The translations under genes were made by a program, and so were the position numbers. From Gammaproteobacteria bacterium (GTDB lineage Bacteria > Pseudomonadota > Gammaproteobacteria > UBA5861), in contig JAKSCV010000075.1 of the NCBI GenBank assembly GCA_022360445.1, forward strand, positions 2,988 to 66,987: a stretch of 64,000 nt of DNA, in the 5' to 3' direction. The notes beneath the pieces were generated by a model, which saw only the letters and a list, made by a program, of their open reading frames with translations, was not told the origin of the DNA and searched no databases. Numbering within the stretch: the first letter of the stretch is position 1; each line of letters opens with the position of its first letter. Below are positions 15,941-43,820 of this stretch, piece by piece.

Positions 15941-16280
15941 TACCTTGTATCTTGCGCCTTGGAATCAATCTGTAGGAACCTCTGATTAACTCCGTACCGT
16001 TTCCGCACGACCTGTTCGCCGCGGCCCTTAGGGGTTTCAATGGATGTGGCGCAAGTAACCTGCTGAAGTTTGCTGGTGTTCACTCGCAGCGATGCGTGAA
16101 CTCGTTCATATCACCTACTGAGTGCTGAAACACAAACAGCCATTTCGGATTGATTATGCTTGGCAGCCAAGACGGTATCTGACTCGCATTTATTACACAA
16201 ACAATTTTGAAGGGGCATGCAATAGCTGGCGGTACTCCATGTATGGGTTTGGGGATAAATTACTGTTCTTATCTTGCCGT

Positions 16281-16979
16281 TTAGTTGTTTTGTCTGGTTG
16301 TGCAGCATTTGGTGTGTCTTATATCTGCAAGTCTGCCTTTCTCCATCACGCCGACGGTTCCCGCCAGTTGATCGGCTTCTGTCTGACTATGGGTAACCAT
16401 AAGTGTAGTAATTTCCTGTACTTTTAATATGTCACGCACCTCCCGCGCCAGGGTGGTGCGCAACTCGCTATCGAGACTGGAAAAGGGTTCATCCATCAAT
16501 AGCAGTCGCGGGTGTCGCGCCAAAGCGCGGGCCAGCCCGATGCGCTGTTGTTGGCCACCGGAAAGTTTGTGCGGGTAGCGCCGCCCCGAATCGGGGAGGC
16601 CAACCAGATCCAGCAGCATTTGAATGCGCTGTTGTTGTATTTTGCGGGGCAAGCCCACAATGCCGAAGCGAATATTGTCGGCAACATTGAGGTGTGGGAA
16701 AAGCGCAAGATCCTGAAACATCATTCCGATTGCCCGTCGCTCGGGTGGCACTGTGTAACCGGCACGGCTCAGCACTTCACCCGCCAGTGAAATGGAGCCC
16801 GTTTGCAGCGGTTCAAATCCTGCAATGGCTCGCAACAGCGTGGTTTTTCCACAACCACTGGGACCCAACAACGCGGCCAGTTCACCAACAGGCAAGGATA
16901 AACTGAGGTCGCTTACCACGACATCGTCGCCGTAGGCGATGGTCACCGAGTCGATGTTTAAAAATGTGGTATCAGTCAT
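16281..16979 (-). CDS. fbpC: Fe(3+) ABC transporter ATP-binding protein FbpC, apparently lacking the usual C-terminal TOBE/MOP domain (possibly 3'-truncated)
   Basis: The 232-aa ORF has Walker A GPSGCGKTT, signature LSGGQQQRIGLARAL and Walker B LLLMDEPFSSLD. The ORF ends in an atypical tail directly abutting the IS-debris region, whereas FbpC is usually about 340-350 aa. Confidence 0.75.
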   Translation of the reverse strand: MTDTTFLNIDSVTIAYGDDVVVSDLSLSLPVGELAALLGPSGCGKTTLLRAIAGFEPLQTGSISLAGEVLSRAGYTVPPERRAIGMMFQDLALFPHLNVADNIRFGIVGLPRKIQQQRIQMLLDLVGLPDSGRRYPHKLSGGQQQRIGLARALARHPRLLLMDEPFSSLDSELRTTLAREVRDILKVQEITTLMVTHSQTEADQLAGTVGVMEKGRLADIRHTKCCTTRQNN

Positions 16980-18522
16980 GAGGTGTCCTTACTTGTCATC
17001 CGGCTGATCAATATGACCGGCAAAAGTCCTGTAACGACGATTGACAGGGCTGGCAGCCCGGCATCGGCCAGACGTTCGTCGGATGCCATTTCAAAGGCAC
17101 GCACAGCGAGGGTGTTGAAATTAAATAGCCGCAGTATCAGGGTTGCAGGCAACTCCTTGAGCACATCGACGAATACTAGTAACAGTGCGGTCAACAGACT
17201 GCCGCGCAATAGCGGTAAGTGTACTCGCCGCAACACGCCCGAAGGTGACTGTCCCAGCGAGCGCGCTGCATCATCCATAGATGGTGTAATTCTGCCCAGG
17301 CCATTTTCCACAGAATGGAGGGAAATCGCCAGAAAACGCACGGCATACGCAAAAAGCAGAACAAATACCGTACCACTCAACATTAAACCCGTAGAGTAGT
17401 CGAATTGCGCGCGCATGATGGCATCCAGCCGGTTGTCGATCCAGGCAAACGGCAACATCACACCCACAGCGATCACCACACCGGGAATTGCATAGCCCAA
17501 CACAGCGATCTGTGCCGATGTACGTACCAGCATATCCGGCCGAAGACGCTGCGCATATCCGATGATCAGCGCCAGTAACAACGCAAGCAATGCGGCGCCT
17601 GCAGCCAGGGACAGGCTCCGCATTACCAGAAAAAGAAAATCGGTGTTAAACGACTCTTCCGCCGTAACCACACTCCAATAGGCCAGCTGGAGGGTCGGCA
17701 AAATAAACCCCAACAGGATTGGCATAAGGCAGAGAAAACATGCGATCCATTTTTTTACGCCACCCAAGGTGAGCAGCGGACTCTTTATAGCGCGCCTGCC
17801 GCTATGGAAGTGCTGTGCCTTACGCCGCGACCATCGCTCCAGCAGGATAAGCGTGACAACAATCATCAACAGGATGGCTGAAAGCTGCATCGCCACCAGT
17901 TCCTCGCCCATTCCGAACCAGACACGAAACACGCCGGTGGTGAAAGTCGCAACGCCGAAATACTGCACAGTACCGTAATCTGCGACAGTTTCCATCAGCG
18001 CCAGTGACAAGCCGGTGATGATCGCCGGTCGGGCAAGTGGAAACGCGACGCTTCGGAATCGCCGCCAGGCACTGGCCCCCAGGGAGCGTGCGGCCTCATC
18101 CACAACCGGAGGTTGCTCGACAAAAGCGACCCGCGCAAGCATGTAAACGTAAGGGTAGAGCACGAGCGAAAACATCACCGCCGCACCGCCCAGGGAACGG
18201 ATCTCCGGAAACCAGTAGTCGCCATGTTGCCAATTGAACAATTCCCGCAGTGCGGTCTGCAAAGGGCCGGCATAGTCTAACGCGCCAACAGCCACGCTGT
18301 GGTGACGCCGATGGACAGCACGCCGACAGACACCCCCGCAACCAGCCAGAACGTGCTAGAGATATAGTCCGGCAGTACCGTCTCGCTGAGATGCGTCCAG
18401 GCATCGCCAAAAGGGGACAACAAACTTGCCAGGACGACCGTTATCGGCAGGGAAAACAGTAAGGTGATCGCTGTTGCCGATAATGTCCAAGGGTTCATAT
18501 TTGCTGTTGGGCGGGTGATCAT
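16976..18522 (-). pseudogene. fbpB: Fe(3+) ABC transporter permease FbpB, split into two overlapping ORFs (18522-18277 for the N-terminal two TM helices, 18295-16976 for the rest). This implies a frameshift or a sequencing error.
   Basis: The N-terminal piece MITRPTANMNPWTLSATAITLLFSLP..WTHLSETVLPDYISSTFWLVAGVSVGVLSIGVTTAWLLAR ends at a TAG. The remaining 439 aa continue in the -1 frame from a GTG. The EAA motif (DEAARSLGASAWRRFRSVAFPLARPA) sits only about 65 aa into the second piece, so the first piece supplies the missing TM helices. Confidence 0.7.
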
Positions 18523-18674: not shown

Positions 18675-19703
18675 CTATTTCCACCCCGCCCTGTCCATGA
18701 CTTTTACAGCTATGGGATTGTTCTCGCCAAGCTCCGTCAGGTTAAGCTGGTCCGCCTTGAACTCACCCCATTGCCTCAGCAGCCTGCTGGGTTTAACGTC
18801 CGCGTGAACCGGATATTCAAAGTTAACCCTGGCATACCATCCCTGCGCTTCCGGGCTGACCAGGTATTCCAATAATTTAACAGCGTTATCGCGGTTTTGC
18901 GAGGCAGCAACCACTCCGGCGCCGCTGACGTTGACATGCGCACCGCGATCATCCTGGTTAGGCCAGAATATCTCCACCCTTTTTGCCGCCCTGCGCTGAT
19001 CCTTATCTTTTCCCTTGAGCATTTTCCCGAGGTAATAAGTATTGGCCACGGCAATATCGCACTGTCCCGCCGCCACTGCCTTGATCTGGTCACGGTCGCC
19101 GCCCTTCGGAGAGCGCGCCATGTTGGCCACCAGTCCTTCGGCCCACTGTTCGGTTTTCTCTTCGCCATTTGCAACGATCATAGAGGCAACCAGCGACTGA
19201 TTGTAGATATTGCTGGAGCTGCGAATGCAGATTCGGCCTTTCCATTTCGGGTCGGCGAGATCTTCGTAGCTCGACAGGTTTTCTTTCTTGACTCGGCCGC
19301 GGCCCTTGGCATACATGATGGGTCGCGAACGTAAAGACAGGCCATACCATTGGCCGTCACGGTCACGTAAATTTTCCGGTATGGCCTGATTTAGTTTACT
19401 GCTGTTAATTGTTGACAATAGCTGCATTTTTTTTGCGCGGTCCAGTCGCCCGGCATCGACAGTGATCAGTACATCGGCGTGTGTATTGGGACCTTCCGTC
19501 TCCAGACGCTTGAGCAGTGCGTCGGCTTTCCCCGTCAGCAGGTTGACCTTGATGCCCGTTGCTTCTGTGAACTCATCCAGCAATGGTTTGATCAATTTTT
19601 CCTTGCGGGCCGAATAAACATTAACTTCCTCCTGGGCAAAAACCGGAAGAGCGGTTGAAAATGCTATCAGGACTGAAAAAAGGATAAAACTGATTTGCTT
19701 CAT
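18675..19703 (-). CDS. fbpA: Fe(3+) ABC transporter periplasmic binding protein FbpA/AfuA
   Basis: The 342-aa ORF has a signal peptide and the FbpA fold pattern (VNVYSARKEKLIKPLLDEFTEATGIKV...). It is the first gene of the fbpABC order. Confidence 0.9.
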   Translation of the reverse strand: MKQISFILFSVLIAFSTALPVFAQEEVNVYSARKEKLIKPLLDEFTEATGIKVNLLTGKADALLKRLETEGPNTHADVLITVDAGRLDRAKKMQLLSTINSSKLNQAIPENLRDRDGQWYGLSLRSRPIMYAKGRGRVKKENLSSYEDLADPKWKGRICIRSSSNIYNQSLVASMIVANGEEKTEQWAEGLVANMARSPKGGDRDQIKAVAAGQCDIAVANTYYLGKMLKGKDKDQRRAAKRVEIFWPNQDDRGAHVNVSGAGVVAASQNRDNAVKLLEYLVSPEAQGWYARVNFEYPVHADVKPSRLLRQWGEFKADQLNLTELGENNPIAVKVMDRAGWK

Positions 19704-19718: not shown

Positions 19719-19750
19719 GTAAAAAAACCGGCGCACTAGGCGCCGGTTGT
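19719..19750 (-). terminator. Rho-independent terminator for the upstream lipoprotein gene, positioned about 20 nt ahead of the fbpA start codon
   Basis: On the minus strand, AACCGGCGC-CTAGT-GCGCCGGTT is followed by TTTTTTT: a perfect 9-bp GC-rich stem plus U-run. Confidence 0.6.
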
Positions 19751-19772: not shown

Positions 19773-21548
19773 TTAAGGTCGATTGTCGAACTGCTTCGCC
19801 TTGAGGGTGTAAAGAGCATCAAGCTTCTCTTGCACACTCAGCAGATCCGCCAGGTAAGCGTCCACTTTGGTTGCGTCGACACCATCCCCATCGGGAGAGC
19901 CTGCGGTCAAAGTGAAGTTGTTACTGCCATCGATCCCGGTCACTTGATCGCCATCAAGCTGAACGGGGCCAAAGCCGATCAGGCCATCAATGTCGTCGAA
20001 GTTGGTCTTGTCTATCACCGCTTTGCTGCCACCGTATTGCAGCGCCATCATGAACCCTTTCAGTTCACTCCACACATGGTAGTAAGCCTTAGTGGTTGCA
20101 TCAGGATCAGTGGCGGTACCATTTCTCAATTCGCTCAGCTGTTCGAATGATATACCGGCGTATTTGAATGCCGCTTCGGCGAATACCATTTCCCAGTTAT
20201 CACGAATGGTATCGGCCAAGGCTTTCAAGTCGGTACGTTCGGTATCGTTCAGCTTGCGCGCATTACCATCGGCATCAACGGCATTGGCAATAATGGTGCG
20301 CCCTTCAAGCCAGGCATCCAGGCTGTCATGGCCATAGGTACAGGCAGGAGCGCATCCAGTATCTTTGTCGAACGAGGCCGCATAGTAGGCGGGCCCGGAA
20401 TTGTACTCGGTGTAGAGGGAGACTGCACCATCGCCGTCAGCGTCGGCCAGCGCCAGCGCGTCTGCCTGGCTGATGTCCTTACCCATCTTGGCGATTTCGT
20501 AGTTTTCCTGAGCGGTATTGTCGCGATAATGGGCCGCGGCACCGAACCAGCCAAAGCCTTCATCCCAGGAGTGCTCCTTCCCGGTATAGTATTTGCCGTC
20601 TTTATAGGGCAAGTCATTGTCCTTGACGCCGGGCTCCAGATTTTCATCCAGGTAGTGATTGATTGATTCGTTATAGAAAACCGCACCCATCAGGAACTTG
20701 GGAAACAGTTGTGAGAAGTCGAAACCCAAATCTTCTCTGTAATAGTCTGGCGTACCATCGGTGTTGGCAGCGTGATCGGCTTCAAAGGCCGCGAGCCAGA
20801 TATCGATGACTTCCTTGGCGGATTTATCGCCGGGAAATCCCAGGGTGATGTTTTCATTGCCTGCCGTAACGCCCCGAATCGGTGTGGCATATCCGGTTGA
20901 GGTATCGAAGAGCTTGCCATAGAGGTTTTTTTCAGTACCCAGCTCGTTGTAAATGGTCTCCTTGACGATGAACTCATTCTTGGTAGTCGGCGCGACGATC
21001 ATTGTGTCATCAATGACGTTGTTTTCGTTCTTGATGTAATTCACGACACCCTGTGCGTCAGCTACGGAGGCTGCCGCTTTGATGGAGGCCTTGGCCGAAT
21101 CGCGTAGTACTGCCCGTGTCATCTGGCCAGCGTAAGATACTGAGGAATCCTGATCCGTATCCGCGCTGGTTGCGGCTGGGTCCAAAGTGACGGGAAAGCC
21201 AGCATAGGTCGTTGGCTGGGTCACGTCAGTCGCCGTCACATCGACAGAGCTGTCAGCGGAATCACCATCTTTGCTGCAGGTGATCACGAATGTCGAATCC
21301 TTACGCAGACGCATGGTTTCCTCACTGCCTGAGGCTCCCTTGTTGCCACTCCAGTCGCCAGATGCGGTACATGTATCGGCGTTTTCCGAAGACCAGGTCA
21401 GGGTAACTTTGCTGCCACGCACAACGCTGTTTGACGAGCTGTCGAGTGTTGCTGTCGGGCTATCGTTATCATCGTCACTACAGCCGGCAGCCAGCAACGC
21501 AATTGAAAGCACAGTCATTGCAAGGCCGGTTTTTGATCGGTAATCCAT
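19773..21548 (-). CDS. Large surface/periplasmic lipoprotein with an N-terminal Ig-like region and a C-terminal domain resembling DUF4856-type proteins that accompany imelysins
   Basis: The true start is probably the ATG at 21548 (MDYRSKTGLAMTVLSIALLAAGCSD, lipobox LAAGC, AGGAG SD); the track ORF extends 39 codons further. The protein is 591 aa and acidic. It is divergently arranged with the imelysin gene across a Fur-box-containing intergenic region. Confidence 0.6.
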   Translation of the reverse strand: MDYRSKTGLAMTVLSIALLAAGCSDDDNDSPTATLDSSSNSVVRGSKVTLTWSSENADTCTASGDWSGNKGASGSEETMRLRKDSTFVITCSKDGDSADSSVDVTATDVTQPTTYAGFPVTLDPAATSADTDQDSSVSYAGQMTRAVLRDSAKASIKAAASVADAQGVVNYIKNENNVIDDTMIVAPTTKNEFIVKETIYNELGTEKNLYGKLFDTSTGYATPIRGVTAGNENITLGFPGDKSAKEVIDIWLAAFEADHAANTDGTPDYYREDLGFDFSQLFPKFLMGAVFYNESINHYLDENLEPGVKDNDLPYKDGKYYTGKEHSWDEGFGWFGAAAHYRDNTAQENYEIAKMGKDISQADALALADADGDGAVSLYTEYNSGPAYYAASFDKDTGCAPACTYGHDSLDAWLEGRTIIANAVDADGNARKLNDTERTDLKALADTIRDNWEMVFAEAAFKYAGISFEQLSELRNGTATDPDATTKAYYHVWSELKGFMMALQYGGSKAVIDKTNFDDIDGLIGFGPVQLDGDQVTGIDGSNNFTLTAGSPDGDGVDATKVDAYLADLLSVQEKLDALYTLKAKQFDNRP

Positions 21549-21635
21549 TATTTTCTCCTGAATTTTACCTAAGAATTTATCGCTGTGGTCGGCCAGTGCC
21601 ACTAACCACAGCAAGCTCATCGCACCATGCATATA

Positions 21636-21680
21636 AATACAAATCACAATCATTTGCAAGCACAATATTATTTACATGAA
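21636..21680. promoter_or_regulatory. Candidate Fur box in the divergent promoter region between the lipoprotein and imelysin genes
   Basis: AAATACAAATCACAATCATTTGCAAGCACAATATTATTTAC resembles the 19-bp Fur consensus GATAATGATAATCATTATC (core AATCACAATCATT). Confidence 0.45.
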
Positions 21681-21779
21681 CTGTTATGAACCATATAATA
21701 TCTATCGTTCAATTTCTTGCCGGTGATAAAGCTCGTCGGTATATCGAAATAATTTCCGATGCCTGCATGGGGGTAACGA

Positions 21780-23009
21780 GTGTTGAAAGGTAGTCAGACA
21801 CATATAAGAGGGGTGCGAATAGCCTCGGCCTGCTTGTCGTTGGTCCTCGTTCTTGGTCTCACGGCTTGCGGAGGGGGCAGCTCATCTGGGGGCGATAACA
21901 ACGAACCACCTGCTAATAGCGGGATCGATCAGCGTGCCCTGTTGACGAATTATGCCAGCATCATGCGCCAGGGTTTTGCAGCGCTTGGTGGCAGTGTTGA
22001 TGCGCTTGAGACTTCGGTGATTACCTACTGTGATTCTCTGGGATCCGCTGGAGAACCGGCTGCACGCACCGCTGCACAGGACGCATTCAAGAGTGCGATG
22101 AACGACGTCCAGTATTCCTTGCTCCATAGTGTGGGGCCATCCCTGGAGGACGATCGGATGGTGCAGTTGTACTCCTGGCCGTTAACCAGTAGTTGTCAGA
22201 TCGACCTCAAGCTTGCAAGAAACCTGACCGAACTGAATCTCGCGGTGAACATACGTGGTCTGGATGCCCTGGAATATCTGTTATTTGTCGACCCGGCTGC
22301 AAATCATAGTTGCCCCGCTAGTCTCATCCCCAGCCCACCCGATCTGCTCGATAATTTCGATGCCCTGAGCGCCGACCAGAAGCAGGCGCGGCGTTGTGAC
22401 TTTATGCGCAACGTGGTGGACGATGCTGCGGCATCTGCACAAATTCTGGCGGATGCCTGGGATCCTGCTATTGATGACTACGGAACCACACTGATTAACG
22501 CGGTAAATCCAGCCGAGGCACTGAATGAAGTGACCGACGCCATGTTCTACTTTGAGGAGCTGGTCAAGGAGAACAAGCTTGATCAGCCGCTAGGCGGCCT
22601 CCTTACCAATATCACACCGAGTTGTGGTGCGTGGCAGCCCTGCCCGCAAGATGTGGAGTCACCACACGCCCGTATTTCAAAGGAAAATCTGCGTGTCAAT
22701 ATGATTGCTTTTCAGGAGCTTTATCATGGTGGTGCACCCGATGATACGGATGCGCTTGGTCTGGACGATTGGCTGATCGAAGAGGGAGAGACAGCGCTGG
22801 CAACGAATTTTGGGGATAACATCCAAGCCGTTATCGATGGTCTGGATAACCTCAATGGCACCTTGTATGACGCGATAAGCAACGATCTCGATGCGCTCAA
22901 TGCACTGCTGACGGGTCCGGTGCAGGATGTCAGCATACCGCTGCGTGAAAGTATCCTGCAAGTGCTCGGTCTGAGCCTGCCTCAAGGGTCCGCATCAGAT
23001 ACGGATTGA
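21780..23009 (+). CDS. Imelysin-family lipoprotein (peptidase M75 / IrpA-like, iron-regulated)
   Basis: The 409-aa ORF has a lipoprotein signal (LVLVLGLTACGG). Its imelysin fold pattern includes the LDALEYLLF motif region and a second conserved Cys/His-rich segment. Confidence 0.7.
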   Translation: MLKGSQTHIRGVRIASACLSLVLVLGLTACGGGSSSGGDNNEPPANSGIDQRALLTNYASIMRQGFAALGGSVDALETSVITYCDSLGSAGEPAARTAAQDAFKSAMNDVQYSLLHSVGPSLEDDRMVQLYSWPLTSSCQIDLKLARNLTELNLAVNIRGLDALEYLLFVDPAANHSCPASLIPSPPDLLDNFDALSADQKQARRCDFMRNVVDDAAASAQILADAWDPAIDDYGTTLINAVNPAEALNEVTDAMFYFEELVKENKLDQPLGGLLTNITPSCGAWQPCPQDVESPHARISKENLRVNMIAFQELYHGGAPDDTDALGLDDWLIEEGETALATNFGDNIQAVIDGLDNLNGTLYDAISNDLDALNALLTGPVQDVSIPLRESILQVLGLSLPQGSASDTD

Positions 23010-23158
23010 TACAGTCGGGTGTTACACACAGCTAGAGCACAGACAGCCAGGCTGACAGGCCACGCCGGCCAGCACTTGGTGCAGCAACGGAATGGATATT
23101 GCCCTGCATGCACTGAAGAGGCAGTGCTCGTCTGCGCCGGCACAGGAGTGCCGCGCAG

Positions 23159-24262
23159 ATGAATCTCGGGATTACCAGACGGGGATTTCTAGGGGTGCTT
23201 TGTGCCCTTCCGCTCTTGCCATTACAGGCCAGCGCGTCACGCCAGCGTGGACAGGTATTCGTCAATGGCCATATCGACCGCAACAACACGCACCATATCA
23301 GCGGTTTTGATAGCAACGGCACGGAGTTTTTTCGCCATGCGCTGCCGGATAAGGCCCATGGATTCGCGGTCAATCCCTCGCATCCGGGCCAGATAGCCGC
23401 GTTACCCAGTTTGCCAGGCACCCAGGCGCCGGTGTTCGATCTCAACAGCGGTCAACAGATCGCCCTGATGACCAGCCGTCCGGGTAGACATTTCAATGGT
23501 CATGGCTGTTTCAGTCACGATGGCCGTTATCTGTATACCAGTGAAAATATCGCGGCCAATGCACAAGGCGTGATCGGTGTGCGCGACGGCCGGACATTCC
23601 GTCTGCTGCGTGAATTGCCCGGGCACGGTATTGGTCCGCATGATATTCGTATTCTTCCGGATGACCGGACTCTGGTCGTGGCCAGCGGTGGCATCCAGAC
23701 TCATCCTGACAGTGGCAAACGCGAACTCAATATCAATACGATGCAATCGGCGCTGCTGTATATCGACAGTCGTGACGGCCGTCTGCTGGCACGGCATCAG
23801 CTACCGGTCGATCAATTATCCATCCGTCACTTCGACGTTGGCAGTGATGGGACGGTGCTGGTTGCCTGCCAGTACAAAGGCAACAGCAAACTACCGGCAC
23901 TTGTCGGGGTTCAGCGCGGTGCTACAGGGATCGAAATGCTGGAAATCGACGATGATGACCTTTGGCCTCTGAAACAATACTGCGCCGACGCGAGGATCGC
24001 CGGTAATGGTGTCGGTGCCGTCAGTTGTCCGCGCGGTAATCGCCTGACACTTTGGAACCTCACGGAAAAACGCTTCATCAAGGCGATAGAGATCAAGGAT
24101 GTCGGAGGGCTGGAAGTCAGCCTCGGTGGAAATGCATTCATTGCCAGTGCCAATACCGGCGAGCTGTATCGAATTGACGCCACCAGCCTGACAAGCCGCC
24201 GGATCGGCACGACCTGGAACGGCGCCAAATGGACGAACCACATGGTGAGCAGCGATGTCTGA
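23159..24262 (+). CDS. DUF1513-family periplasmic beta-propeller-like protein with a Tat signal
   Basis: The 367-aa ORF has a twin-arginine motif (RRGFLGVL), and its sequence is colinear with the second DUF1513 gene at 41511-42638 (GVIGVWD/GVIGVRD, GIGPHE/GIGPHD, GGIQTHPD). Confidence 0.7.
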   Translation: MNLGITRRGFLGVLCALPLLPLQASASRQRGQVFVNGHIDRNNTHHISGFDSNGTEFFRHALPDKAHGFAVNPSHPGQIAALPSLPGTQAPVFDLNSGQQIALMTSRPGRHFNGHGCFSHDGRYLYTSENIAANAQGVIGVRDGRTFRLLRELPGHGIGPHDIRILPDDRTLVVASGGIQTHPDSGKRELNINTMQSALLYIDSRDGRLLARHQLPVDQLSIRHFDVGSDGTVLVACQYKGNSKLPALVGVQRGATGIEMLEIDDDDLWPLKQYCADARIAGNGVGAVSCPRGNRLTLWNLTEKRFIKAIEIKDVGGLEVSLGGNAFIASANTGELYRIDATSLTSRRIGTTWNGAKWTNHMVSSDV

Positions 24263-24364: not shown

Positions 24365-26701
24365 TTGTTCTTGCAAGAGTGGTTTAATCGCGATGCCCGA
24401 TCCAACGGGCAGATTGTTGAATGTCAGCCCGAAGCGTATCGGCAACCCCATCGACGGGTATCGCCCCGAATAGCCGCCAGAGCGCCATTGCACTGGGTGG
24501 AAATCTGCCTCATTGCCCAACTTTTCAGCAGTTCGTTACGGGCGGAGACTGGGGCGGAAACTGAGGAAATCATCAAGCTGGACGCCGTCGTTATCACCGG
24601 TGATGCCGAAACCCGTCAACGCACGCCAGGGTCGGTACATAAAATAGACCAGCAGGCGTTAGAGCAGTGGAAACACACCGATATCCATCGGGTGCTCGAG
24701 GAAGTGCCGGGTGTTTATGTTCGCGGTGAAGACGGCTGGGGATTACGGCCGAACATCGGCATGCGTGGCGCAGGCTCCGACCGCAGTAAAAAAATTGCTC
24801 TGATGGAAGACGGCATATTGTTTGCGCCGGCTCCATACTCCGCGCCCGCAGCCTACTACTTCCCTTTAATGCCAAGAATGCAGTCCGTCGAGGTGTTTAA
24901 AGGACCGGCAGCGATTCAGTACGGCCCCAACACCGTGGGTGGCGCCATCAATTTTGTCAGCCGCGATATTCCTGGCAGCGAGGAAGATGAAGAAGACTTG
25001 AATGGTGCGATTGACCTAGCGCTGGGCAATTACGCTTACGGTAAACTACACGGGTATTATGGCGAGAGCACCGACCGTTACGGCTGGCTGCTCGAAGGCG
25101 TGCATCTGCAAAGTGATGGTTTTAAGGAACTCGATGGCGGCGGAGATACGGGTTTCGACAAAAACGACATTCTGTTCAAAGCCCGTTTTAACAGCGATTT
25201 TTCCGCTGATATCTACCATCAGTTTGACCTGAAAATTGGTTACGCCGATGAGGAATCCGATGAAACCTACCTTGGATTGACAGACGACGATTTTGACGCC
25301 AACCCGCTGCGCCGCTATGCCGCCAGCCAGCTGGACAACATGAGCTGGGACCACCAGCAATACAGTCTTAATCATTACATGGACCCAGGTGGCAGCTATG
25401 CGTTGAACACGACGATCTATCGCCGTGAATTCTCCCGTGTTTGGGACAAACTGAATGGCTTTAGTGGGGGCGCGCCCGATCTGCAGGAAATTCTCAGTGA
25501 CCCCTATTCGCCGGTTAACTCGATATTTTATGAGGTGTTGACCGGTCAGTCCGATTCACTAACGCCCACCGAAACCTTATTGATGGGCGCCAACGCACGT
25601 GACTTTATCGCCCAGGGTATTCAAACTCAGATTGAGTGGGAACCTGAAATCGCTGGCTACGTCCACGAGATCAGGGCCGGGCTGCGCTATCACGAAGATG
25701 AAATTATCCGTAACCACTCTGAACGTGGTTTTTTAATGCAATCAGGCGAAATGGTGCACGATGGCAACCCGACACGATTCACCACACGCAACCGTGCCAG
25801 TGCCGAGGCTCTGGCACTCCATCTGCACGACGACGTGACCTTCGGCGACCTGACGCTGAGTGGCGGTGTGCGCGCTGAACTGATTGAGACTGATTTCATT
25901 AACCGGTTGACCGGAGATCTGATTTCCCGCAGCGACGATGTGATCATTCCTGGCCTCGGAATAAGCTACAAAACGACCCCAAACCTGCGTTTGCTTGCGG
26001 GTGTGCACAAAGGTTTTGTTCCAGTGCCACCGGGCAGCGATCCGGAGGTTGAACCCGAAGAGAGCATTAACTACGAATTCGGCTTACGTTTCTCCAGCGG
26101 TGATCTGCGTGCTGAAGCGATCGGCTTTTTCAATGACTACTCCAACCTGACCGGCGTTTGCACATTCTCCTCTGGCTGTGCCACCAGTGAACTTGACCTC
26201 GGATTCAACGCCGGAGAAGTGGATATTTGGGGCCTGGAAGCGGTGCTGGAGAAAACCTTTGCCAGCAGCATCCAGGGCCGGCTTGAATTCCCGGTCAAAC
26301 TCATCTACACCTGGACCACGAGTGAATTTAAAAATGCCTTCACATCACCCCGTCCGGATCTACGTGATGTCAACGTCGGAGATGAACTGCCGTACCTGCC
26401 TGAGCACCAGTTGACCTTAAAAGCGGGTGTTTCCCGCCACCAGTGGCGCGGCGCGGTTGCGTTCACATATGTCGCCGAGATGCGGACCAGTGCCGGTACC
26501 GGTGAGCCAGCGGATAACGAGCGCACGGACCAACAAACCATTGTCGATCTAACCCTGGATTACCAACTCACTAACCGCAGCCAGATTTATTTCAGCGCAG
26601 ATAACCTGTTCGACGACGAGGCAATTGTCGCGCGGCGGCCGTTTGGTGCGCGACCGGGAAAACCACGAACTCTCAGCATGGGTTATAAAATGAACTTCTA
26701 A
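24365..26701 (+). CDS. TonB-dependent outer-membrane receptor; the exact start and signal peptide are uncertain
   Basis: The 778-aa ORF has a plug domain (VYVRGEDGWGLRPNIGMRGAG), a beta-barrel and a C-terminal ...TLSMGYKMNF ending in Phe. The N-terminus as called lacks a convincing signal peptide. Confidence 0.8.
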   Translation: MFLQEWFNRDARSNGQIVECQPEAYRQPHRRVSPRIAARAPLHWVEICLIAQLFSSSLRAETGAETEEIIKLDAVVITGDAETRQRTPGSVHKIDQQALEQWKHTDIHRVLEEVPGVYVRGEDGWGLRPNIGMRGAGSDRSKKIALMEDGILFAPAPYSAPAAYYFPLMPRMQSVEVFKGPAAIQYGPNTVGGAINFVSRDIPGSEEDEEDLNGAIDLALGNYAYGKLHGYYGESTDRYGWLLEGVHLQSDGFKELDGGGDTGFDKNDILFKARFNSDFSADIYHQFDLKIGYADEESDETYLGLTDDDFDANPLRRYAASQLDNMSWDHQQYSLNHYMDPGGSYALNTTIYRREFSRVWDKLNGFSGGAPDLQEILSDPYSPVNSIFYEVLTGQSDSLTPTETLLMGANARDFIAQGIQTQIEWEPEIAGYVHEIRAGLRYHEDEIIRNHSERGFLMQSGEMVHDGNPTRFTTRNRASAEALALHLHDDVTFGDLTLSGGVRAELIETDFINRLTGDLISRSDDVIIPGLGISYKTTPNLRLLAGVHKGFVPVPPGSDPEVEPEESINYEFGLRFSSGDLRAEAIGFFNDYSNLTGVCTFSSGCATSELDLGFNAGEVDIWGLEAVLEKTFASSIQGRLEFPVKLIYTWTTSEFKNAFTSPRPDLRDVNVGDELPYLPEHQLTLKAGVSRHQWRGAVAFTYVAEMRTSAGTGEPADNERTDQQTIVDLTLDYQLTNRSQIYFSADNLFDDEAIVARRPFGARPGKPRTLSMGYKMNF

Positions 26702-30513: not shown

Positions 30514-30550
30514 GAAGTGGTTCCTAACCTCTAAGAAAATCGAATACATA

Positions 30551-32762: not shown

Positions 32763-32813
32763 TACTGTCCTCTTAATTTCATCACTAGCGCTGTTTTCAA
32801 AAAGGGAGCCTCT

Positions 32814-37317: not shown

Positions 37318-37356
37318 AATAATGATTGACATCATAACAAGAATCATTATCATTTA
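37318..37356. promoter_or_regulatory. Fur box upstream of hemP
   Basis: AAATAATGATTGACATCATAACAAGAATCATTATCATTT contains near-consensus Fur half-sites (AATGATTGACATCAT / GAATCATTATCATT). Confidence 0.65.
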
Positions 37357-37390
37357 AGTTCACAATCAAATCATAGAGTGAGTCACGATC

Positions 37391-37646: not shown

Positions 37647-38903
37647 ATGAAAAAATTTATTGCGTTACTTGCCGGCATTGCACTGAGCACCAGTGGGTGG
37701 GCAAAAACAACGGAAAAAGCTGTTCTCACACACTACGCTGATTTAGCTCATGCTATGTATCAGGACTCACTGATCACAGCCCAGGCACTCCATAAAGCAG
37801 TGAAGCAATTAGCCGCTCAACCCACGGAAGCCAATCTCAACCATGCAAAAGTTGCTTGGAAAGCCGCCCGTGTCCCCTATCAGCAAACAGAAGCCTACCG
37901 CTTTGGCAATGCCATCGTTGATGACTGGGAAGGCAAAGTCAACGCATGGCCACTGGATGAAGGTCTGATCGATTATGTCGATGGCAGTTATGGCTCAGAG
38001 TCCGATGAGAACCCCTACTACACGGCTAACATCGTCGCCAATGAAAAACTCATGATTGGTGGCCAAAGCATTGATACCGGCAACATTACCAAAGCGCTTC
38101 TGTCCGATACTTTGCACGAAATTGATGAGGTTGAGTCAAATGTTGCCACAGGTTATCACGCCATTGAATTCTTACTGTGGGGGCAAGATTTGAATGGTAC
38201 CCAAGCTGGTGCAGGTAAACGCCCTGCCAGTGATTTTTCTAACGAAAACTGCACTGGAGGTCACTGCGATCGCCGAGTCGCCTATCTTCTCGCCACGACC
38301 GAATTACTCGTTGATGAACTCAACTGGATCACATCTCAATGGGCCAAAGGTGGAGATGCTCGCAAAGCCCTGATGGACGGCGACAGCAAAGCAAGCATCG
38401 GCACTATTTTGACCGGGCTAGGCAGCCTCTCCTATGGCGAGCTGGCCGGAGAGCGAATGAAGCTCGGAGTCATGCTGCACGACCCGGAAGAAGAACACGA
38501 CTGCTTTAGCGACAATACGCACTGGTCACACTATTACGATGCTATGGGCATAAAAAATGTTTATACAGGCCGTTACACGCGCGTTAGCGGTGAAACACTC
38601 AGTGGCCCCAGCGTCTCATCACTGGTGGCCAAGAAAGACGCAAAGGTCGATCAGGCGCTACGTGATCAAATTGAAACTACACTGGCCAAAATGCAAGTCC
38701 TGGTCGATAGCGCTGAAAAAGACAACGTTGCCTACGACCAGCTCATCGCAGAAGGAAATACCGCAGGAAACGCCAAGGTAATGGATGCTGTTAACGCGCT
38801 TGTTGCGCAAACCAAAGGAATCGAAAGCGCAGTGGCTACTTTAGGGCTCAACCCTATTGAGTTCGAGGGCTCAGATAGCCTTGATGCACCGCATAAAGTC
38901 TAG
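37647..38903 (+). CDS. Imelysin-family lipoprotein (IrpA/IcmP-like)
   Basis: The 418-aa ORF has a signal peptide plus the GYHAIEFLLWGQD (GxHxxE) imelysin motif. Confidence 0.75.
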   Translation: MKKFIALLAGIALSTSGWAKTTEKAVLTHYADLAHAMYQDSLITAQALHKAVKQLAAQPTEANLNHAKVAWKAARVPYQQTEAYRFGNAIVDDWEGKVNAWPLDEGLIDYVDGSYGSESDENPYYTANIVANEKLMIGGQSIDTGNITKALLSDTLHEIDEVESNVATGYHAIEFLLWGQDLNGTQAGAGKRPASDFSNENCTGGHCDRRVAYLLATTELLVDELNWITSQWAKGGDARKALMDGDSKASIGTILTGLGSLSYGELAGERMKLGVMLHDPEEEHDCFSDNTHWSHYYDAMGIKNVYTGRYTRVSGETLSGPSVSSLVAKKDAKVDQALRDQIETTLAKMQVLVDSAEKDNVAYDQLIAEGNTAGNAKVMDAVNALVAQTKGIESAVATLGLNPIEFEGSDSLDAPHKV

Positions 38904-38963
38904 CCCACACAAGGTAGCGTTGTAAAAGCACAGCGCTACCGCCCCGTTTAGCCAGGTTTATCC

Positions 38964-40412
38964 ATGAAACCCAGTCAACACATGAGTCTCGCCGTGCTGC
39001 TAATGCTCTCAACTCTAACGGCAAAAGCCGATCTCCCGGCACTGACGAATAATTTCACTCAGCCGGAAACGGGTGAAGCTTACCCCGGTGGAAAAAGCAC
39101 TTCTACCCGACCTGCTGACAAGCGGGCGTACTCACACCCCAGCACTAACATGAAGCCTGAGCGCAAACTGGATTTCACCTTAGGCAAAGCGATGTTTAAA
39201 CGCCTGTGGGCTTCTGCGCCAACCACCACACAGGCAGCAGATGGCCTTGGCCCACTATTCAATGCTCGGTCCTGCTTGCAATGCCACCAAGGTAATGGCC
39301 GTGGCAAACCCCAGGCACAGGCTGGAAAAACCGATCCTTCCTTTTTTTTACAACTCAGTATTTCCGGCCCGGCAAACACGCAGAAAACAACACACACCCC
39401 GCCCCCTGAACCCACCTATGGCCACCAATTGCAACCTTTTGCCGTGCGGGGATTACCAGCAGAAGGACAGGTTCGAATCACTTACGAGTCGATCCGCGTC
39501 CCGCTCGCTGATAACGAAGTCATCACGCTTCGCAAACCCCGTTACGAGATCACCCAGCTAAACTATGGTCCACTTCATCCAGACACACTCACGTCACCAC
39601 GCATAGCCCCCCAACTGATCGGGTTAGGCCTGCTGGGCGCCATTCACCCGAAAGATCTCGAATCACTGGCCGACCCTGGCGACAACGACCAGAATGGAAT
39701 TTCGGGTCGTATCAACCACGTCTGGAGCGAGCAACACGATGCGCTCAAGCCAGGGCGATTTGGCTGGAAAGCAAGCACCGCCAGCATCAACGAACAAACA
39801 CAAAAAGCCTTCTTTTTCGACATCGGCCTATCCACACCTCTGTTTAAAAGCGGTGCAGGCGAGTGTACCCCGACACAGGCCGCTTGCCAGTCCCTGCCGA
39901 ATGGCAACTCTCCCCAATACGAAGACCTGGAAGCCCACTCAGACATTACTAACTGGACCGCACTTTATACACGTAACCTGGCCGTTCCTCAGCGTAGAAA
40001 TTTCAATGACGCGCGTGTTCTCAGTGGAAAGCAGTTGTTTTACCAAAGCGGTTGCACAGCGTGCCACCAACCTAAATTCATAACCCGTGATGATCCCGTC
40101 GACCCGGAACATGCCCGCCAACTGATCTGGCCGTATACCGATCTACTGTTACATGACATGGGTGAGGACTTGGCCGACCACCGGCCTGTTGCCGGCGCAA
40201 GCGGACGGGAGTGGCGCACAGCACCGCTGTGGGGGATCGGCTTAAGCAAGACGGTTAATGGCAACAACAACTTTCTGCACGATGGCCGCGCCCGCACCCT
40301 GCTGGAAGCTATCCTATGGCACGGTGGTGAGGCTGCTGACTCACGCAAGAAGATTGTCAATATGACCCGAACACAACGTGCGGATTTAATTCTGTTTATC
40401 GAATCCTTGTGA
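38964..40412 (+). CDS. Dihaem c-type oxidoreductase of the DUF1111 family (the putative thiol oxidoreductase / peroxidase-like partner of imelysins)
   Basis: The 482-aa ORF has a signal peptide and two CxxCH haem motifs (CLQCHQGNG and CTACHQP). Confidence 0.7.
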   Translation: MKPSQHMSLAVLLMLSTLTAKADLPALTNNFTQPETGEAYPGGKSTSTRPADKRAYSHPSTNMKPERKLDFTLGKAMFKRLWASAPTTTQAADGLGPLFNARSCLQCHQGNGRGKPQAQAGKTDPSFFLQLSISGPANTQKTTHTPPPEPTYGHQLQPFAVRGLPAEGQVRITYESIRVPLADNEVITLRKPRYEITQLNYGPLHPDTLTSPRIAPQLIGLGLLGAIHPKDLESLADPGDNDQNGISGRINHVWSEQHDALKPGRFGWKASTASINEQTQKAFFFDIGLSTPLFKSGAGECTPTQAACQSLPNGNSPQYEDLEAHSDITNWTALYTRNLAVPQRRNFNDARVLSGKQLFYQSGCTACHQPKFITRDDPVDPEHARQLIWPYTDLLLHDMGEDLADHRPVAGASGREWRTAPLWGIGLSKTVNGNNNFLHDGRARTLLEAILWHGGEAADSRKKIVNMTRTQRADLILFIESL

Positions 40413-40422
40413 GGAAACAGAT

Positions 40423-41508
40423 ATGCTCCATAAAAGACTTGTTCAACGGCTGCTGCAAAGCCTGGGGTTTCTCAGCGTACTGACGTTTACAGCCAGTGTA
40501 CACGCTGAACCCAACTGGAAAAGCCTTAACCAGGCAGTGATCGACCAACATATCTTGCCACGCTATCAGCAACTGCAAACCGATACTCAAGCACTTGCGC
40601 AAGCCACAACACTTTTTTGCACTCAACACACCCGTTCGACCTTTGATCAACTGAAAGCCACTTACCAGCACACAATGGATAGCTGGATGGCTATTCAGCA
40701 TATTCGCTTTGGCCCTGTAGAGGCTTCACTGCGCTACTACCGCTATCAAATCTGGCCAGACAAACACAACACAGGGACCAAACAACTCCAGCGTCTGCTG
40801 AAGAGCGAAGATCTGAAACGACTTGAGCCCAAGCAGTTTGCACAAAGCAGTGTTGCCGTTCAGGGTTTGACCGCACTGGAGCGCCTGCTTTTCCCAACAG
40901 CACTGGATCTGGGGCAATTTGGGTCCCCTCAGGCACCCAGCTACCACTGTGAACTGATTTTGGCCATTGCTCGGAATTTGGCACTCATGTCGTCGGCAAT
41001 CGTTACCGACTGGACAGTCAGTGAAGTGCCTTACCGTACACGCGTCCTCACTGCCGGGCCAGAGAGTGATGATTTCACCAGTCACAGAGAAATTGCGAGC
41101 CAATGGCTCAACAGCATTAGCACGCAGCTCCAGGTGATCACCGAACAAAAATTGCTTCGTCCACTCAAACGTTTCCGTTTAAAGCGTGCAGAATCCTGGC
41201 GGAGCCGCCGCTCACTGGACAATATTTTTTTGAACCTGCACGCCATCCGTGAGCTCTACGCGATAGGCCTAGCACCCAAATTACCTGAAGATCCGTTAGA
41301 CAACGCGATCAAAAAAGCGTTTGACCAGGCCATCACCTCGATCACAGCACTCGATACCCCGCTTTATGACATCAAACAGGACTCACCAGAGGCCAAGAAG
41401 CTGGAAAAAATACTCGCCGATGCTCGCCAATTGACGGCATTAGCCTCCTCTGAGCTGCCCCAGGCCTTGGGTCTATCGCTGGGATTTAACAGTTTGGACG
41501 GTGACTGA
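40423..41508 (+). CDS. Imelysin-like protein (second paralogue, lacking the canonical HxxE)
   Basis: The 361-aa ORF has a signal peptide and a GLTALERLLF motif region, positioned as the third gene of the conserved imelysin-DUF1111-imelysin-like-DUF1513 arrangement. Confidence 0.6.
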   Translation: MLHKRLVQRLLQSLGFLSVLTFTASVHAEPNWKSLNQAVIDQHILPRYQQLQTDTQALAQATTLFCTQHTRSTFDQLKATYQHTMDSWMAIQHIRFGPVEASLRYYRYQIWPDKHNTGTKQLQRLLKSEDLKRLEPKQFAQSSVAVQGLTALERLLFPTALDLGQFGSPQAPSYHCELILAIARNLALMSSAIVTDWTVSEVPYRTRVLTAGPESDDFTSHREIASQWLNSISTQLQVITEQKLLRPLKRFRLKRAESWRSRRSLDNIFLNLHAIRELYAIGLAPKLPEDPLDNAIKKAFDQAITSITALDTPLYDIKQDSPEAKKLEKILADARQLTALASSELPQALGLSLGFNSLDGD

Positions 41509-41510
41509 CC

Positions 41511-42638
41511 GTGCCCATAACCCGACGCCAGTTTATGCTCGCAGCGACCGGTTTTTCGCTGCTGTATACAGGCACGATTAGGCGTAGCGGACACAGCAGT
41601 ACCCAGTACCTGAGTGCTTACACCGATGCAAAAGGCGATGACTTCATCAGTGGCTTTAACCAAAAAGGGAGCTTCCAGTTTCAGACGCCCCTGCCCAGCC
41701 GAGGGCATGCCATTGCCGTATCGCCCGTCACTCAAGACGCCGTCGCTATTGCCCGCAGACCCGGTCGCTACTTAATTGTTATTGATACAAGAACGGGCCA
41801 AATACGGCACACTCTGGAAAGCCATGCTGGGCGACACTTTTATGGCCATGGCGTCTTTTCGCAGGATGGACGGTGGTTCTACACCACGGAGAATGACTTT
41901 ACCAGTGGACAAGGGGTGATTGGTGTATGGGATGCTCAACGAGACTACCAGTTAGTGGACACATTTTTATCCTACGGTATCGGTCCACATGAGCTGATCA
42001 TGCTCTCAGATGGCCAGACACTCGCTGTGGCGAATGGCGGGATTCAAACACACCCCGACACCGGCCGGGCCAAATTAAACCTTGAACAGATGCGGCCGTC
42101 TCTCACCTACCTTGACAGCCGCCGAGGCACTCTTCTGGAGCAACAGCACCTCCCACCGCTGTGGCACAAAAACAGTATCCGGCATCTGGCATCTACCCCG
42201 GATGATTGTATTTGCTTTGTCATGCAATACCAGGGACAAGCCAGCGTGGCACCATCACTGGTCGGCCTTCACCGGAAAGGTCAACCGGTTCAGTTACTTT
42301 ATGCACCACCCACAATTCAAAAAAATATGCGCAATTACTGCGGGAGCGTTTGTGCCGATACCTCGGGGACAATATTTGCGGTCTCTTCACCCAAAGGGGG
42401 GATTGTAACTTTTTGGCGCGCGAAAGACGGCCAGTTTTTGGGACACAGCAAGCTGATTGATGGTTGCGGCATTGCCAGAGGCCAACAGCCTGGCATGTTT
42501 TTATTGAGTAACGGTGCCGGGCACCTGGTCCACATCCAGGTCAATCAGCAGCAGTTAAACACAACGTTGACCACTCAAAAATCCCAAATACACTGGGACA
42601 ACCACATGACGCATATTCCAGTTTCATCATTCGGATGA
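41511..42638 (+). CDS. DUF1513-family protein with a Tat signal
   Basis: The 375-aa ORF has RRQFMLAATGF and is colinear with the paralogue at 23159-24262. Confidence 0.7.
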   Translation: MPITRRQFMLAATGFSLLYTGTIRRSGHSSTQYLSAYTDAKGDDFISGFNQKGSFQFQTPLPSRGHAIAVSPVTQDAVAIARRPGRYLIVIDTRTGQIRHTLESHAGRHFYGHGVFSQDGRWFYTTENDFTSGQGVIGVWDAQRDYQLVDTFLSYGIGPHELIMLSDGQTLAVANGGIQTHPDTGRAKLNLEQMRPSLTYLDSRRGTLLEQQHLPPLWHKNSIRHLASTPDDCICFVMQYQGQASVAPSLVGLHRKGQPVQLLYAPPTIQKNMRNYCGSVCADTSGTIFAVSSPKGGIVTFWRAKDGQFLGHSKLIDGCGIARGQQPGMFLLSNGAGHLVHIQVNQQQLNTTLTTQKSQIHWDNHMTHIPVSSFG

Positions 42639-42653
42639 CGACGGAGATAAACC

Positions 42654-43820
42654 ATGCATATTCCTCACGCGACACCTTTGCTTCTGGCAGGCATGATGAC
42701 CCTCTTTCCGTTTCACACCTTATCGGCCTTTGAAACGGTTGAAATGCTGGGCCAGACACTCTTTTTTGACAAAAACCTCTCCAAAAACCGTACACAGTCC
42801 TGTGCCACTTGCCATGATCCAGCTAACGGTTTTGCAGACGCCCGTGACAATGCAGCCGCTGGCACCGTCTCACTGGGTGATGACAACGCTTCCCTGGGGG
42901 ACCGGAACGCACCCACAGCCGCTTACGCAGCCTTTAGCCCGCCTTTCCACCTCAACAAAGAGGGTATATACGTGGGTGGGCAGTTCCATGACGGCCGAGC
43001 CAAAAACCTCACCGAACAAGCGGGTGGCCCACCCACCAACCCCATTGAAATGGGGCTTCCGGACAAGGCTGCTACCGTCAAGCGGTTACAGGAAAATAAG
43101 CAATATGTCTCAAGCTTTAAAACGTTTTACGGTGAGAATATCTTCCACAACACGGACAAGGCCTATACCGCCATGGCTCAGAGTATTGCCGCTTTTGAAA
43201 AAACGGCTTTCTTCTCACCTTTTGACTCCAAATACGACCGCTATTTACGCGGTGAATATACCCTGAATAAAGAAGAAGATCTGGGTATGACGCTCTTCTT
43301 CTCCAAACAATTCACTAATTGCAATCTTTGCCACCAGCTCAAAAAATTACCAGGCCGCGAAAGCGAAACCTTTACCAACTACAGCTACCACAACATCGGC
43401 ACCCCCATCAATCAAAAGGCACGAAGTGTGAATGGCGTGCTGGCAGACCACATTGACAAAGGCTTGCTCGACAACCCTGACGTCAACGACCCGGCTCAGG
43501 CGGGCAAATTTAAAGTCCCGACTTTGCGTAATGTCGCAGTCACCGCACCCTATATGCACAACGGTATTTTCTCCGATCTTCGTACAGTTGTGCTGTTCTA
43601 CAACAAATACAACAGCCGCAGTGCAAAACGCCAAATCAATCCGGAAACCGGTCAGCTCTGGCAATCACCCGAAATCGCAGAAAACCTCTCGTTACAGGAG
43701 CTGGAAACCGGCCCCGCCCTGGATGATAAGCGCATCGATGCGTTGGTGGCCTTCATGAAGACATTGACTGATCAGCGTTACGAGCACTTGCTCAAACAGC
43801 CCTTGCAAAACCGGCCCTAA
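42654..43820 (+). CDS. Dihaem cytochrome c peroxidase (CcpA/MauG family)
   Basis: The 388-aa ORF has a signal peptide, two haem sites (CATCHD and CNLCHQ) and the CCP-family conserved regions (GQFHDGRAKNLTEQAGGP, FKVPTLRNVAVTAPYMHNG). Confidence 0.85.
   Translation: MHIPHATPLLLAGMMTLFPFHTLSAFETVEMLGQTLFFDKNLSKNRTQSCATCHDPANGFADARDNAAAGTVSLGDDNASLGDRNAPTAAYAAFSPPFHLNKEGIYVGGQFHDGRAKNLTEQAGGPPTNPIEMGLPDKAATVKRLQENKQYVSSFKTFYGENIFHNTDKAYTAMAQSIAAFEKTAFFSPFDSKYDRYLRGEYTLNKEEDLGMTLFFSKQFTNCNLCHQLKKLPGRESETFTNYSYHNIGTPINQKARSVNGVLADHIDKGLLDNPDVNDPAQAGKFKVPTLRNVAVTAPYMHNGIFSDLRTVVLFYNKYNSRSAKRQINPETGQLWQSPEIAENLSLQELETGPALDDKRIDALVAFMKTLTDQRYEHLLKQPLQNRP

Follow-up and report, generated by a model that had tools for sequence, protein, structure and literature searches.

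A conserved, probably Fur-controlled candidate iron-uptake cassette uniting DUF4856, imelysin, and DUF1513 proteins with a dedicated TonB-dependent receptor

Imelysin, DUF1111, and DUF1513 proteins are common and iron-regulated, and they still lack a biochemical function. How are they organized in the systems described so far? The canonical operon (PA4370-PA4373 type) encodes an imelysin, a DUF1111 protein, another imelysin, and a DUF1513 protein (PMC3143127; 10.1101/072470). Xu et al. (2011) stated imelysins to be almost always linked to a peroxidase (PMC3143127), and Price et al. reported that DUF1513 is cofit with the imelysin/DUF1111 operon and has metal phenotypes, and proposed a role in iron uptake (10.1101/072470). 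EfeUOB/EfeM and related systems are reported as imelysin-containing systems for ferrous/ferric uptake (PMC9174327, PMC3577903). Here we describe a locus at 16.3-26.7 kb of a 64,000-nucleotide stretch (hereafter, the window) of a metagenome-assembled Gammaproteobacteria contig. This locus, which we call cassette A, is a separate and conserved unit; it is probably controlled by Fur and devoted to iron uptake, with an outer-membrane receptor of its own and a ferric-iron ATP-binding cassette (ABC) importer at its core.

Genes were read from an open reading frame (ORF) listing combined with Pfam and NCBIfam scans, and every gene named in the original prediction for this DNA was recovered, each with strong Pfam support. 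The plus-strand arm consists of a type-A imelysin-like lipoprotein of the Peptidase_M75 family (imeA, 21780..23009; Pfam 1.6e-21), an A-type DUF1513 protein (DUF1513A, 23159..24262; Pfam 8.9e-85), and a cassette-specific TonB-dependent receptor with plug and barrel domains (24365..26701). The minus-strand arm runs from a DUF4856 lipoprotein (19773..21548; Pfam 3.4e-11) through a periplasmic binding protein of the FutA/FbpA ferric-iron class (18675..19703; SBP_bac_6 4.2e-23) and an FbpB-like ABC permease (16976..18498; BPD_transp_1 5.4e-18) to its last gene, an ABC transporter ATPase (16281..16979; ABC_tran 9.3e-36). We consider it reasonably probable, from gene content and synteny, that the two arms form one divergently transcribed, likely Fur-repressed, TonB-dependent iron import unit feeding a FutA/FbpABC transporter. 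The receptor, energized by the TonB system at 30.6-32.8 kb, would transport either iron or a weak iron complex through the outer membrane; the imelysin-like and DUF4856 lipoproteins and the periplasmic, Tat-exported DUF1513 propeller would capture or process the metal; and the metal would then be handed to FutA and moved into the cytoplasm by the ABC importer. What the analysis itself establishes is the gene families, export signals, folds, divergence, synteny, receptor orthology, FutA identity, and Fur-box enrichment; we infer the substrate, the topology of the proteins (facing the periplasm or exposed at the surface), the sequence in which they pass the metal on, and any redox steps. The original prediction spoke of iron or haem import; iron gains support from the FutA/FbpA-type neighbour and from Fur-box enrichment across the cassette family, whereas haem has no specific support.

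How does cassette A compare with the described systems? With the canonical operon it shares an adjacent IPPA-type (GxxxxE) imelysin and Tat-exported DUF1513 protein (imeA, then DUF1513A), a periplasmic/outer-membrane location, a candidate Fur-type promoter element, and a presumed iron-uptake role. Unlike that operon, it contains no HxxE/GxHxxE imelysin and no DHOR/DUF1111 gene (no DHOR match was obtained between 16 and 27 kb); it adds the DUF4856 lipoprotein, the dedicated receptor, and the putative FutA/FbpABC importer; and its imelysin and DUF1513 proteins belong to separate subfamilies. It also departs from the rule of Xu et al. (PMC3143127), as its imelysin is not paired with a peroxidase. 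Like EfeUOB/EfeM, cassette A would employ an M75/imelysin-fold periplasmic protein in elemental iron uptake; unlike them, it lacks an EfeU/Ftr1 permease, a DyP peroxidase, and a cupredoxin domain, and it has an ABC system at the inner membrane and a TonB-dependent receptor at the outer membrane (PMC9174327, PMC3577903). The literature searched contained no description of DUF4856 or of the receptor-linked cassette, a single paper that mentions DUF1513, and nothing relevant on imelysin with sterol desaturase or with marine iron limitation.

A genuine copy of the canonical operon lies in the same window, at 37.6-43.8 kb. This five-gene module (37647..43820, plus strand; assigned from Pfam, NCBIfam, and translations), whose presence the original prediction had noted correctly, runs from an M75 imelysin (imeB, 5.8e-85) through DHOR/DUF1111 (38964-40412; 1.3e-85), a second M75 imelysin (imeC, 4e-47), and a B-type DUF1513 (DUF1513B, 1.7e-114) to a CCP_MauG protein (3e-46). 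Its first imelysin carries the motif GYHAIE, the HxxE form that was found in the window only here (at 37647), and its second carries the IPPA-type GLTALE. For the CCP that ends the module, the nearest family is that of the MbnH di-haem enzymes (TIGR04039, 157 bits, under the cut-off), and a 242-aa protein with no Pfam or NCBIfam match follows it (region 42654-44660). In L005 and L088, too, a CCP comes after the canonical module.

Is cassette A then a partial paralogous copy of this module, as originally proposed? Paralogy holds at the family level, but a copy of the local module is contradicted by divergence, clade structure, and self-standing synteny. Pairwise alignment gives 34% identity between DUF1513A and DUF1513B and 23% between imeA and imeC (E 0.006), and there is no significant similarity between imeA and imeB (E 8 over 48 residues); the relationship is ancient, not recent. 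Homologues of DUF1513A split into one subfamily with 45-65% identity to it and all others at 42% or less, and a neighbour-joining tree groups the 28 A-type sequences in a clade of their own. DUF1513B of the window, in turn, is 56% identical to a non-A protein from another genome. The co-occurrence of two DUF1513 and three imelysin proteins, flagged earlier as unusual, is indeed seen in the window, but the same complement lies within 10 kb in L005 (GCA_039029275.1), where the block of cassette A stands directly beside a rearranged full module with its CCP; it is thus a recurring pattern and not a one-off.

How widely is the arrangement conserved? The block in which DUF4856 is divergent from an M75-DUF1513 pair recurs on five other contigs (L001, L003, L005, L006, and L007) with unrelated flanks: pheST/uvrB (L001), fmt/Mrp antiporter (L003), and, elsewhere, a TonB system, DsbD/PhoQ, and cytochrome oxidase. 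It is also present in L010-L018 (Cocleimonas, Thiotrichaceae, and Hydrogenovibrio bins), the nearest relatives of the window being such Thiotrichales-like bins. With the receptor included, roughly twelve metagenome bins, some Thiotrichales-like and others from elsewhere in the Gammaproteobacteria, carry this order in unrelated chromosomal contexts. A FutA-type binding protein stands beside DUF4856 on three of the five contigs. The suggested coupling to the downstream TonB-dependent receptor is borne out by conserved synteny, in that the receptor follows DUF1513 in four of these five independent contexts, and by the orthologous receptor of the cassette variants.

For a wider census, one genome per species was scanned with a type-A imelysin profile, and the resulting 80 loci were annotated with purpose-built hidden Markov models. 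The most frequent order, found in 51 loci and nearly always co-directional, was DUF4856, type-A imelysin, receptor, and a protein of the FA_hydroxylase family; its carriers include Pseudoalteromonas, Pleionea, Aliikangiella, Colwellia, Psychrobium, Ferrimonas, Marinobacter nauticus, Marinimicrobium, and others. A further 14 loci, mostly from Myxococcota, have the same order without FA_hydroxylase, while 7 have other or truncated arrangements; Kangiellaceae are also among the carriers of the wider cassette. DUF1513 is present in only 8/80 loci, namely the seven closest relatives of the window and a hybrid cluster in HTCC5015. DUF4856 is divergent in the five DUF1513-variant loci where it flanks the imelysin, as compared with 1 of the 66 other DUF4856-bearing loci. 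The window, in which DUF4856 likewise has a type-A imelysin and an orthologous TonB-dependent receptor as neighbours, shares with the wider cassette orthologous DUF4856, imelysin (28-35% identity), and receptor genes and Fur-like boxes upstream of DUF4856. The window receptor is 75% identical to that of L001; identities are 57-64% inside the clade and 43-47% against the receptors of Pseudoalteromonas, Marinobacter, and Myxococcota. Unlike the wider cassette, the clade of the window has DUF4856 inverted and DUF1513 between imelysin and receptor, and it lacks FA_hydroxylase (which had no match anywhere in the window); the window also has a FutA-type binding protein immediately adjacent. By synteny and sequence relationships, cassette A is a lineage-specific variant of the widespread DUF4856/type-A imelysin/receptor/FA_hydroxylase cassette, with an old DUF1513 paralogue apparently in the place of FA_hydroxylase. 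The synteny further indicates that the locus joins two recurrent pairs, IPPA-type imelysin/DUF1513 and DUF4856/FutA, around a dedicated receptor.

What do the proteins of the minus-strand arm suggest about the substrate? Judged by sequence, the binding protein belongs clearly to the FutA/FbpA ferric-iron class: its closest solved structure is FutA1 (2pt1, E 6.9e-104), followed by 6g7n, 2voz, and FbpA (1q35). An orthologous FutA-type binding protein adjoins DUF4856 in L001, L005, L007, L008, L009, and L010. The ATPase matches the NCBIfam ferric ABC ATPase PRK11432 at 2.9e-58, under the cut-off. The DUF4856 proteins of Eionea flava, Shimia marina, and other Rhodobacteraceae are more distant and are not lipoproteins; they occur with an FA_hydroxylase gene and a FutA-type ABC system, with no imelysin or receptor nearby. 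Overall, DUF4856 turns up repeatedly in marine bacteria in the company of ferric-iron ABC importers, and in the window its lipoprotein is better read as the first gene of a minus-strand DUF4856-futA-permease-ATPase unit.

The large lipoprotein of the original prediction is real, but the listed start of its ORF (21665; ORF 19773-21665) lies too far upstream and adds a spurious N-terminal extension. The likely start is ATG 21548 (MDYRSKTGLAMTVLSIALLAAG-C), where the lipoprotein signal LLAAG-C aligns with the N termini of orthologues, so that the divergent intergenic region measures 231 bp (21549-21779). The resulting protein, a predicted outer-membrane lipoprotein of 591 aa, has a lipobox (LAAG-C), an acidic linker, an immunoglobulin (Ig)-like N-terminal domain (residues ~32-107), and a helical DUF4856 domain of ~480 aa (PF16148, 43.2 bits against a gathering cut-off of 22.3) that is confidently modelled and contains an invariant motif, G-x-E-H-x-W-D-E. 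Full-length homologues range from 100 to 40% identity. The helical domain had no solved structural relative, and membership of the imelysin superfamily, considered as a candidate, was rejected, as neither profile nor fold similarity to imelysins was found. An acidic run follows soon after the lipid-anchored cysteine in the DUF4856 lipoproteins of the window, L001, L005, and L007 (CSDDDNDS, CSDDDDDD, ...SSSDDDDD). Such runs recall the surface-export signals of Bacteroidetes lipoproteins.

On the plus strand, the imelysin is likewise a lipoprotein (LGLTA-CGGGSS). Its PF09375 domain is retained, scoring 77.6 bits (cut-off, 23.5) over profile positions 4-266 of 288. The motif is the GxxxxE variant (RGLDALEY), several cysteines are conserved, and there is a C-terminal SDTD. 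The HxxE metal site is absent from imeA, which lacks the histidine; the glutamate is also replaced in L005 (Q) and L007 (G). Identity to its orthologues is 37-66%. In an exhaustive search, the type-A family comprised ~750 clusters (50% identity level) at E <= 1e-10, ~11 of which are more than 40% identical to the window protein. The assignment to DUF1513 (PF07433) holds up, with a score above the gathering threshold, a beta-propeller fold, and an export signal, and both DUF1513 proteins are targeted to the twin-arginine translocation (Tat) pathway as predicted, with leaders ITRRGFL and ITRRQFM; the RR pair is retained in 60-61 of 62 homologues. DUF1513A is confidently modelled as a soluble, seven-bladed beta-propeller with six invariant or nearly invariant histidines, and structure comparison places it near, among others, the His-hub metalloenzymes selenium-binding protein/MTO, NosZ, and thiocyanate dehydrogenase. 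Because these histidines are conserved, the modelled protein is likely a metalloprotein. The receptor starts at TTG 24365 or, more likely, at GTG 24458, which is followed by a signal peptide. Its closest solved structure is FecA (2.3e-26, partial), and its similarity to the neighbouring siderophore receptor is confined to the plug region, at only 27% identity.

Is the cassette under Fur control? Its promoter region suggests that it probably is. Sites were scored against the 19-bp Escherichia coli consensus, followed by mismatch ranking, comparison of orthologous promoters, and a matrix from other species. A strict search, allowing at most three mismatches, gave no site anywhere in the window; the highest-scoring site of the divergent intergenic region is at 21639 (ACAAATCACAATCATTTGC, 12/19). 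Together with a 19-mer offset by 6 nt (21633), it makes up a Fur-like box at 21633..21657 (strand not assigned; reverse complement GCAAATGATTGTGATTTGT) beside a TTGCAA hexamer. The position of the box beside TTGCAA is conserved in L001, L003, L005, L006, and L007, and the matches in these five orthologous intergenic regions reach 13-15/19, the best or near-best of each 21-kb locus. Homologous sites in related loci read GCAAATGATATTGATT, and in direct comparison the window site is identical at 15/19 positions to the cassette sites of Marinobacter and Ferrimonas. Across 57 loci with a related co-directional cassette, the 450 nt upstream of DUF4856 contained the locus-best Fur 19-mer in 47% (median background fraction, 0.045). 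When the matrix was derived solely from sites that precede homologous cassettes in other species, the sites at 21633 and 21639 ranked 13th and 14th of all positions on both strands, behind the Fur clusters at 37318-37357 and near the siderophore receptor/exbB promoter (30285 and 30558-30594) and a few isolated sites. A sigma-70-like promoter (21671..21699, plus strand; TTTACA-17-TATAAT, 11/12) lies ~80 nt upstream of the imelysin start, just past the box; promoter-like sites in the region are no more numerous than shuffled expectation. The Fur-like box that had been proposed here is thus weak in isolation but supported by its conserved position and by family-wide enrichment. The cluster at 37318..37357, ~300 nt upstream of the five-gene module, is the strongest in the window, with overlapping matches of 15/19, 14/19, and 13/19 and the top matrix scores; the cluster at 30558-30594 falls between the FhuA/FoxA-like receptor and exbB.

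Several observations weigh against an intact, Fur-repressed import unit at this locus. At 12/19, its Fur site scores no better than ~65 other places in the window, and the receptor reaches no NCBIfam equivalog cut-off. The permease reading frame is broken near 18280-18349, where the N-terminal 73 codons (MNPWTL..., 18280-18498) are out of frame with the main ORF (16976-18349). When the intact L008 permease served as tblastn query, only its residues 153-559 were matched; the ABC arm may therefore be defective here, or the bin may contain sequencing errors. This gene and a broken cupredoxin gene downstream (27412-27848, minus strand) may be real pseudogenes or products of assembly indel errors. 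Between the DUF4856 stop and the futA start there is also a GC-rich hairpin followed by a T-run (19726..19748, minus strand in the terminator-like scan); its perfect 9-bp stem is terminator-like on both strands. It may be a partial terminator or attenuator that uncouples the ABC genes from DUF4856 expression, so co-transcription is not assured. Finally, DUF1513 and FA_hydroxylase co-occur in L038 and L090 and are therefore not simple substitutes, which weakens the idea that they exclude one another.

In L038 (gamma proteobacterium HTCC5015), positions 1-12137 hold, in one direction, an imelysin, DHOR, an IPPA imelysin, FutA, a permease, an ATPase, DHOR, DUF1513, a type-A imelysin, and FA_hydroxylase, a hybrid cluster that joins parts of both modules with the ABC importer. 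In L090 (6923-13272), a DUF1513 gene whose product is 42% identical to DUF1513A is divergent from an FA_hydroxylase gene and immediately precedes a DUF3450-ExbB-ExbB-ExbD-TonB-TPR system; the vicinity contains no imelysin gene. On its own, too, DUF1513 can thus be associated with TonB machinery.

Could the cassette represent a more general pathway? Tentatively, and with less confidence than we place in the import unit itself, we suggest that DUF4856, a type-A imelysin, and a dedicated receptor may make up a widespread, hitherto undescribed, siderophore-independent iron pathway of marine Gammaproteobacteria and Myxococcota that feeds FutA/FbpABC, with either the FA_hydroxylase-family membrane protein or, in the clade of the window, DUF1513 as an accessory. 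DUF1513 would in that case be a Tat-exported metallo-propeller with a predicted His-lined hub, acting in a redox or metal-transfer step. If so, it would perform the step that is assumed, in the canonical operon, to involve the di-haem DUF1111.

Which other functions could explain the same genes? The neisserial TbpA/TbpB-FbpABC system combines a receptor, a lipoprotein, and a binding protein of the FbpA class. By analogy with it, or with BtuB/BtuG, surface-exposed DUF4856 and/or imelysin lipoproteins of cassette A might strip iron from an external carrier before import through the receptor to FutA. We rate it highest among the alternatives but still regard it as unlikely. The parallel in receptor, lipoprotein(s), and FbpA-class binding protein speaks for it, as do the Ig-like domain and the acidic linker after the lipid-anchored cysteine of DUF4856, and an outer-membrane location has been predicted for the imelysins ICMP, LruB, and PIBO (PMC3143127). 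Yet the two systems are functional analogues only: the accessory proteins of cassette A have no homology to the TbpB or BtuG lipoproteins and no TbpB-like Pfam match, DUF1513 is Tat-exported and not a lipoprotein, and surface exposure in cassette A is hypothetical. No known surface-lipoprotein exporter was seen among the window genes scanned, although some ORFs were not scanned and no search was aimed at Slam/DUF560. A periplasmic role is favoured, since the DUF4856 proteins of Eionea and Shimia are secreted non-lipoproteins with no nearby receptor.

A second alternative, improbable as well and placed just after surface capture, is that the cassette handles a metal other than iron (e.g., copper) or a metal-bound cofactor, with DUF1513 as a copper-type His-hub propeller enzyme. 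Among the structural neighbours of DUF1513A are selenium-binding protein/MTO and the copper enzymes NosZ and thiocyanate dehydrogenase, the frameshifted cupredoxin gene lies just downstream of the receptor, the full module ends in the MbnH-like di-haem enzyme, and no siderophore or haem equivalog reaches its cut-off with the receptor. Against these points, similarity among propeller folds is generic, the adjacent binding protein is clearly of the ferric-iron class, Fur-type boxes are enriched upstream of the cassette family, and the island also contains ferritin, hydroxamate-siderophore receptor, TonB, and PepSY_TM genes.

Could cassette A instead defend the envelope against oxidative or metal stress, like the peroxide-induced TonB-receptor/imelysin (LruB)/CCP cluster of Leptospira? 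There, imelysin and TonB-dependent genes reportedly respond to peroxide. DUF1513 mutants also have chlorite and metal phenotypes (10.1101/072470), and DUF1111 and an "iron-regulated protein" are peroxide-induced in Dinoroseobacter (PMC8007024). We assign this function a low probability, below that of another metal: cassette A contains no peroxidase, its steady partners are a receptor and a ferric-iron ABC importer, its promoter motif is Fur-like, and the stress phenotypes can be explained as secondary to iron supply, as noted by Price et al. (10.1101/072470). Least credible is a recent or degraded partial duplicate of the neighbouring module that retained its last two genes and does the same job redundantly; the imelysin-DUF1513 order does equal that of the last two genes of the canonical operon, and imeA shares the GxxxxE variant motif with imeC, its closest local imelysin, but this reading is already largely refuted by the low identities, the exclusive clade of A-type DUF1513 proteins, the occurrence of the block without a full module nearby in L001, L003, L006, and L007, and the normal company of type-A imelysins (DUF4856, their own receptor, and FA_hydroxylase, without DHOR).

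What surrounds the cassette? The G+C content of the iron island is 0.49-0.56, compared with 0.43-0.48 across most of the flanking sequence; it climbs from ~0.45 to ~0.53 at 16 kb and drops back beyond ~46 kb. The left edge (13911-16281) looks decayed: a truncated Mutator-family transposase (13911-14564) is followed by a non-haem ferritin gene (14390-14902, minus strand; from general family scans) and by insertion sequence and TonB fragments (14.9-16.3 kb), including an orphan, 85-aa TonB C-terminal fragment at 15683-15937, with no long ORFs from there to 16281. Downstream of the cassette, the frameshifted cupredoxin gene (pseudoazurin/plastocyanin-type; N-terminal part, 27615-27848; C-terminal part, 27412-27729, with a C-x-P-H...M copper motif, Copper-bind 2.9e-6) occupies an otherwise gene-poor, 1.6-kb gap between two receptors. 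Then come the FhuA/FoxA-like hydroxamate-siderophore receptor (28345-30633, minus strand); exbB-exbD-tonB, an unknown gene, and PepSY_TM (30602-34794, plus strand); and parC (34931-37195, minus strand). Four tRNA genes cluster at 3024-3466 (minus strand) and were the only Rfam matches at gathering thresholds across the window, with none in the cassette.

What does the cassette mean for these protein families? The imelysin-DUF1513 pair can work without the di-haem DUF1111, which is thus not obligatory for the role of the pair. A whole subfamily of imelysins goes together with DUF4856 and one specific TonB-dependent receptor, and these ties point to a route from receptor to FutA/FbpA and not to the EfeU-type route assumed by analogy. 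Siderophore-free iron uptake by marine heterotrophs is an open question in ocean biogeochemistry, and the existence of culturable carriers of the related cassette (Marinobacter nauticus, Pseudoalteromonas, and Ferrimonas) makes its function directly testable. Cassette A introduces no surprising new principle; it is tractable and fairly widespread, and it narrows the possible roles of three protein families without a known function.

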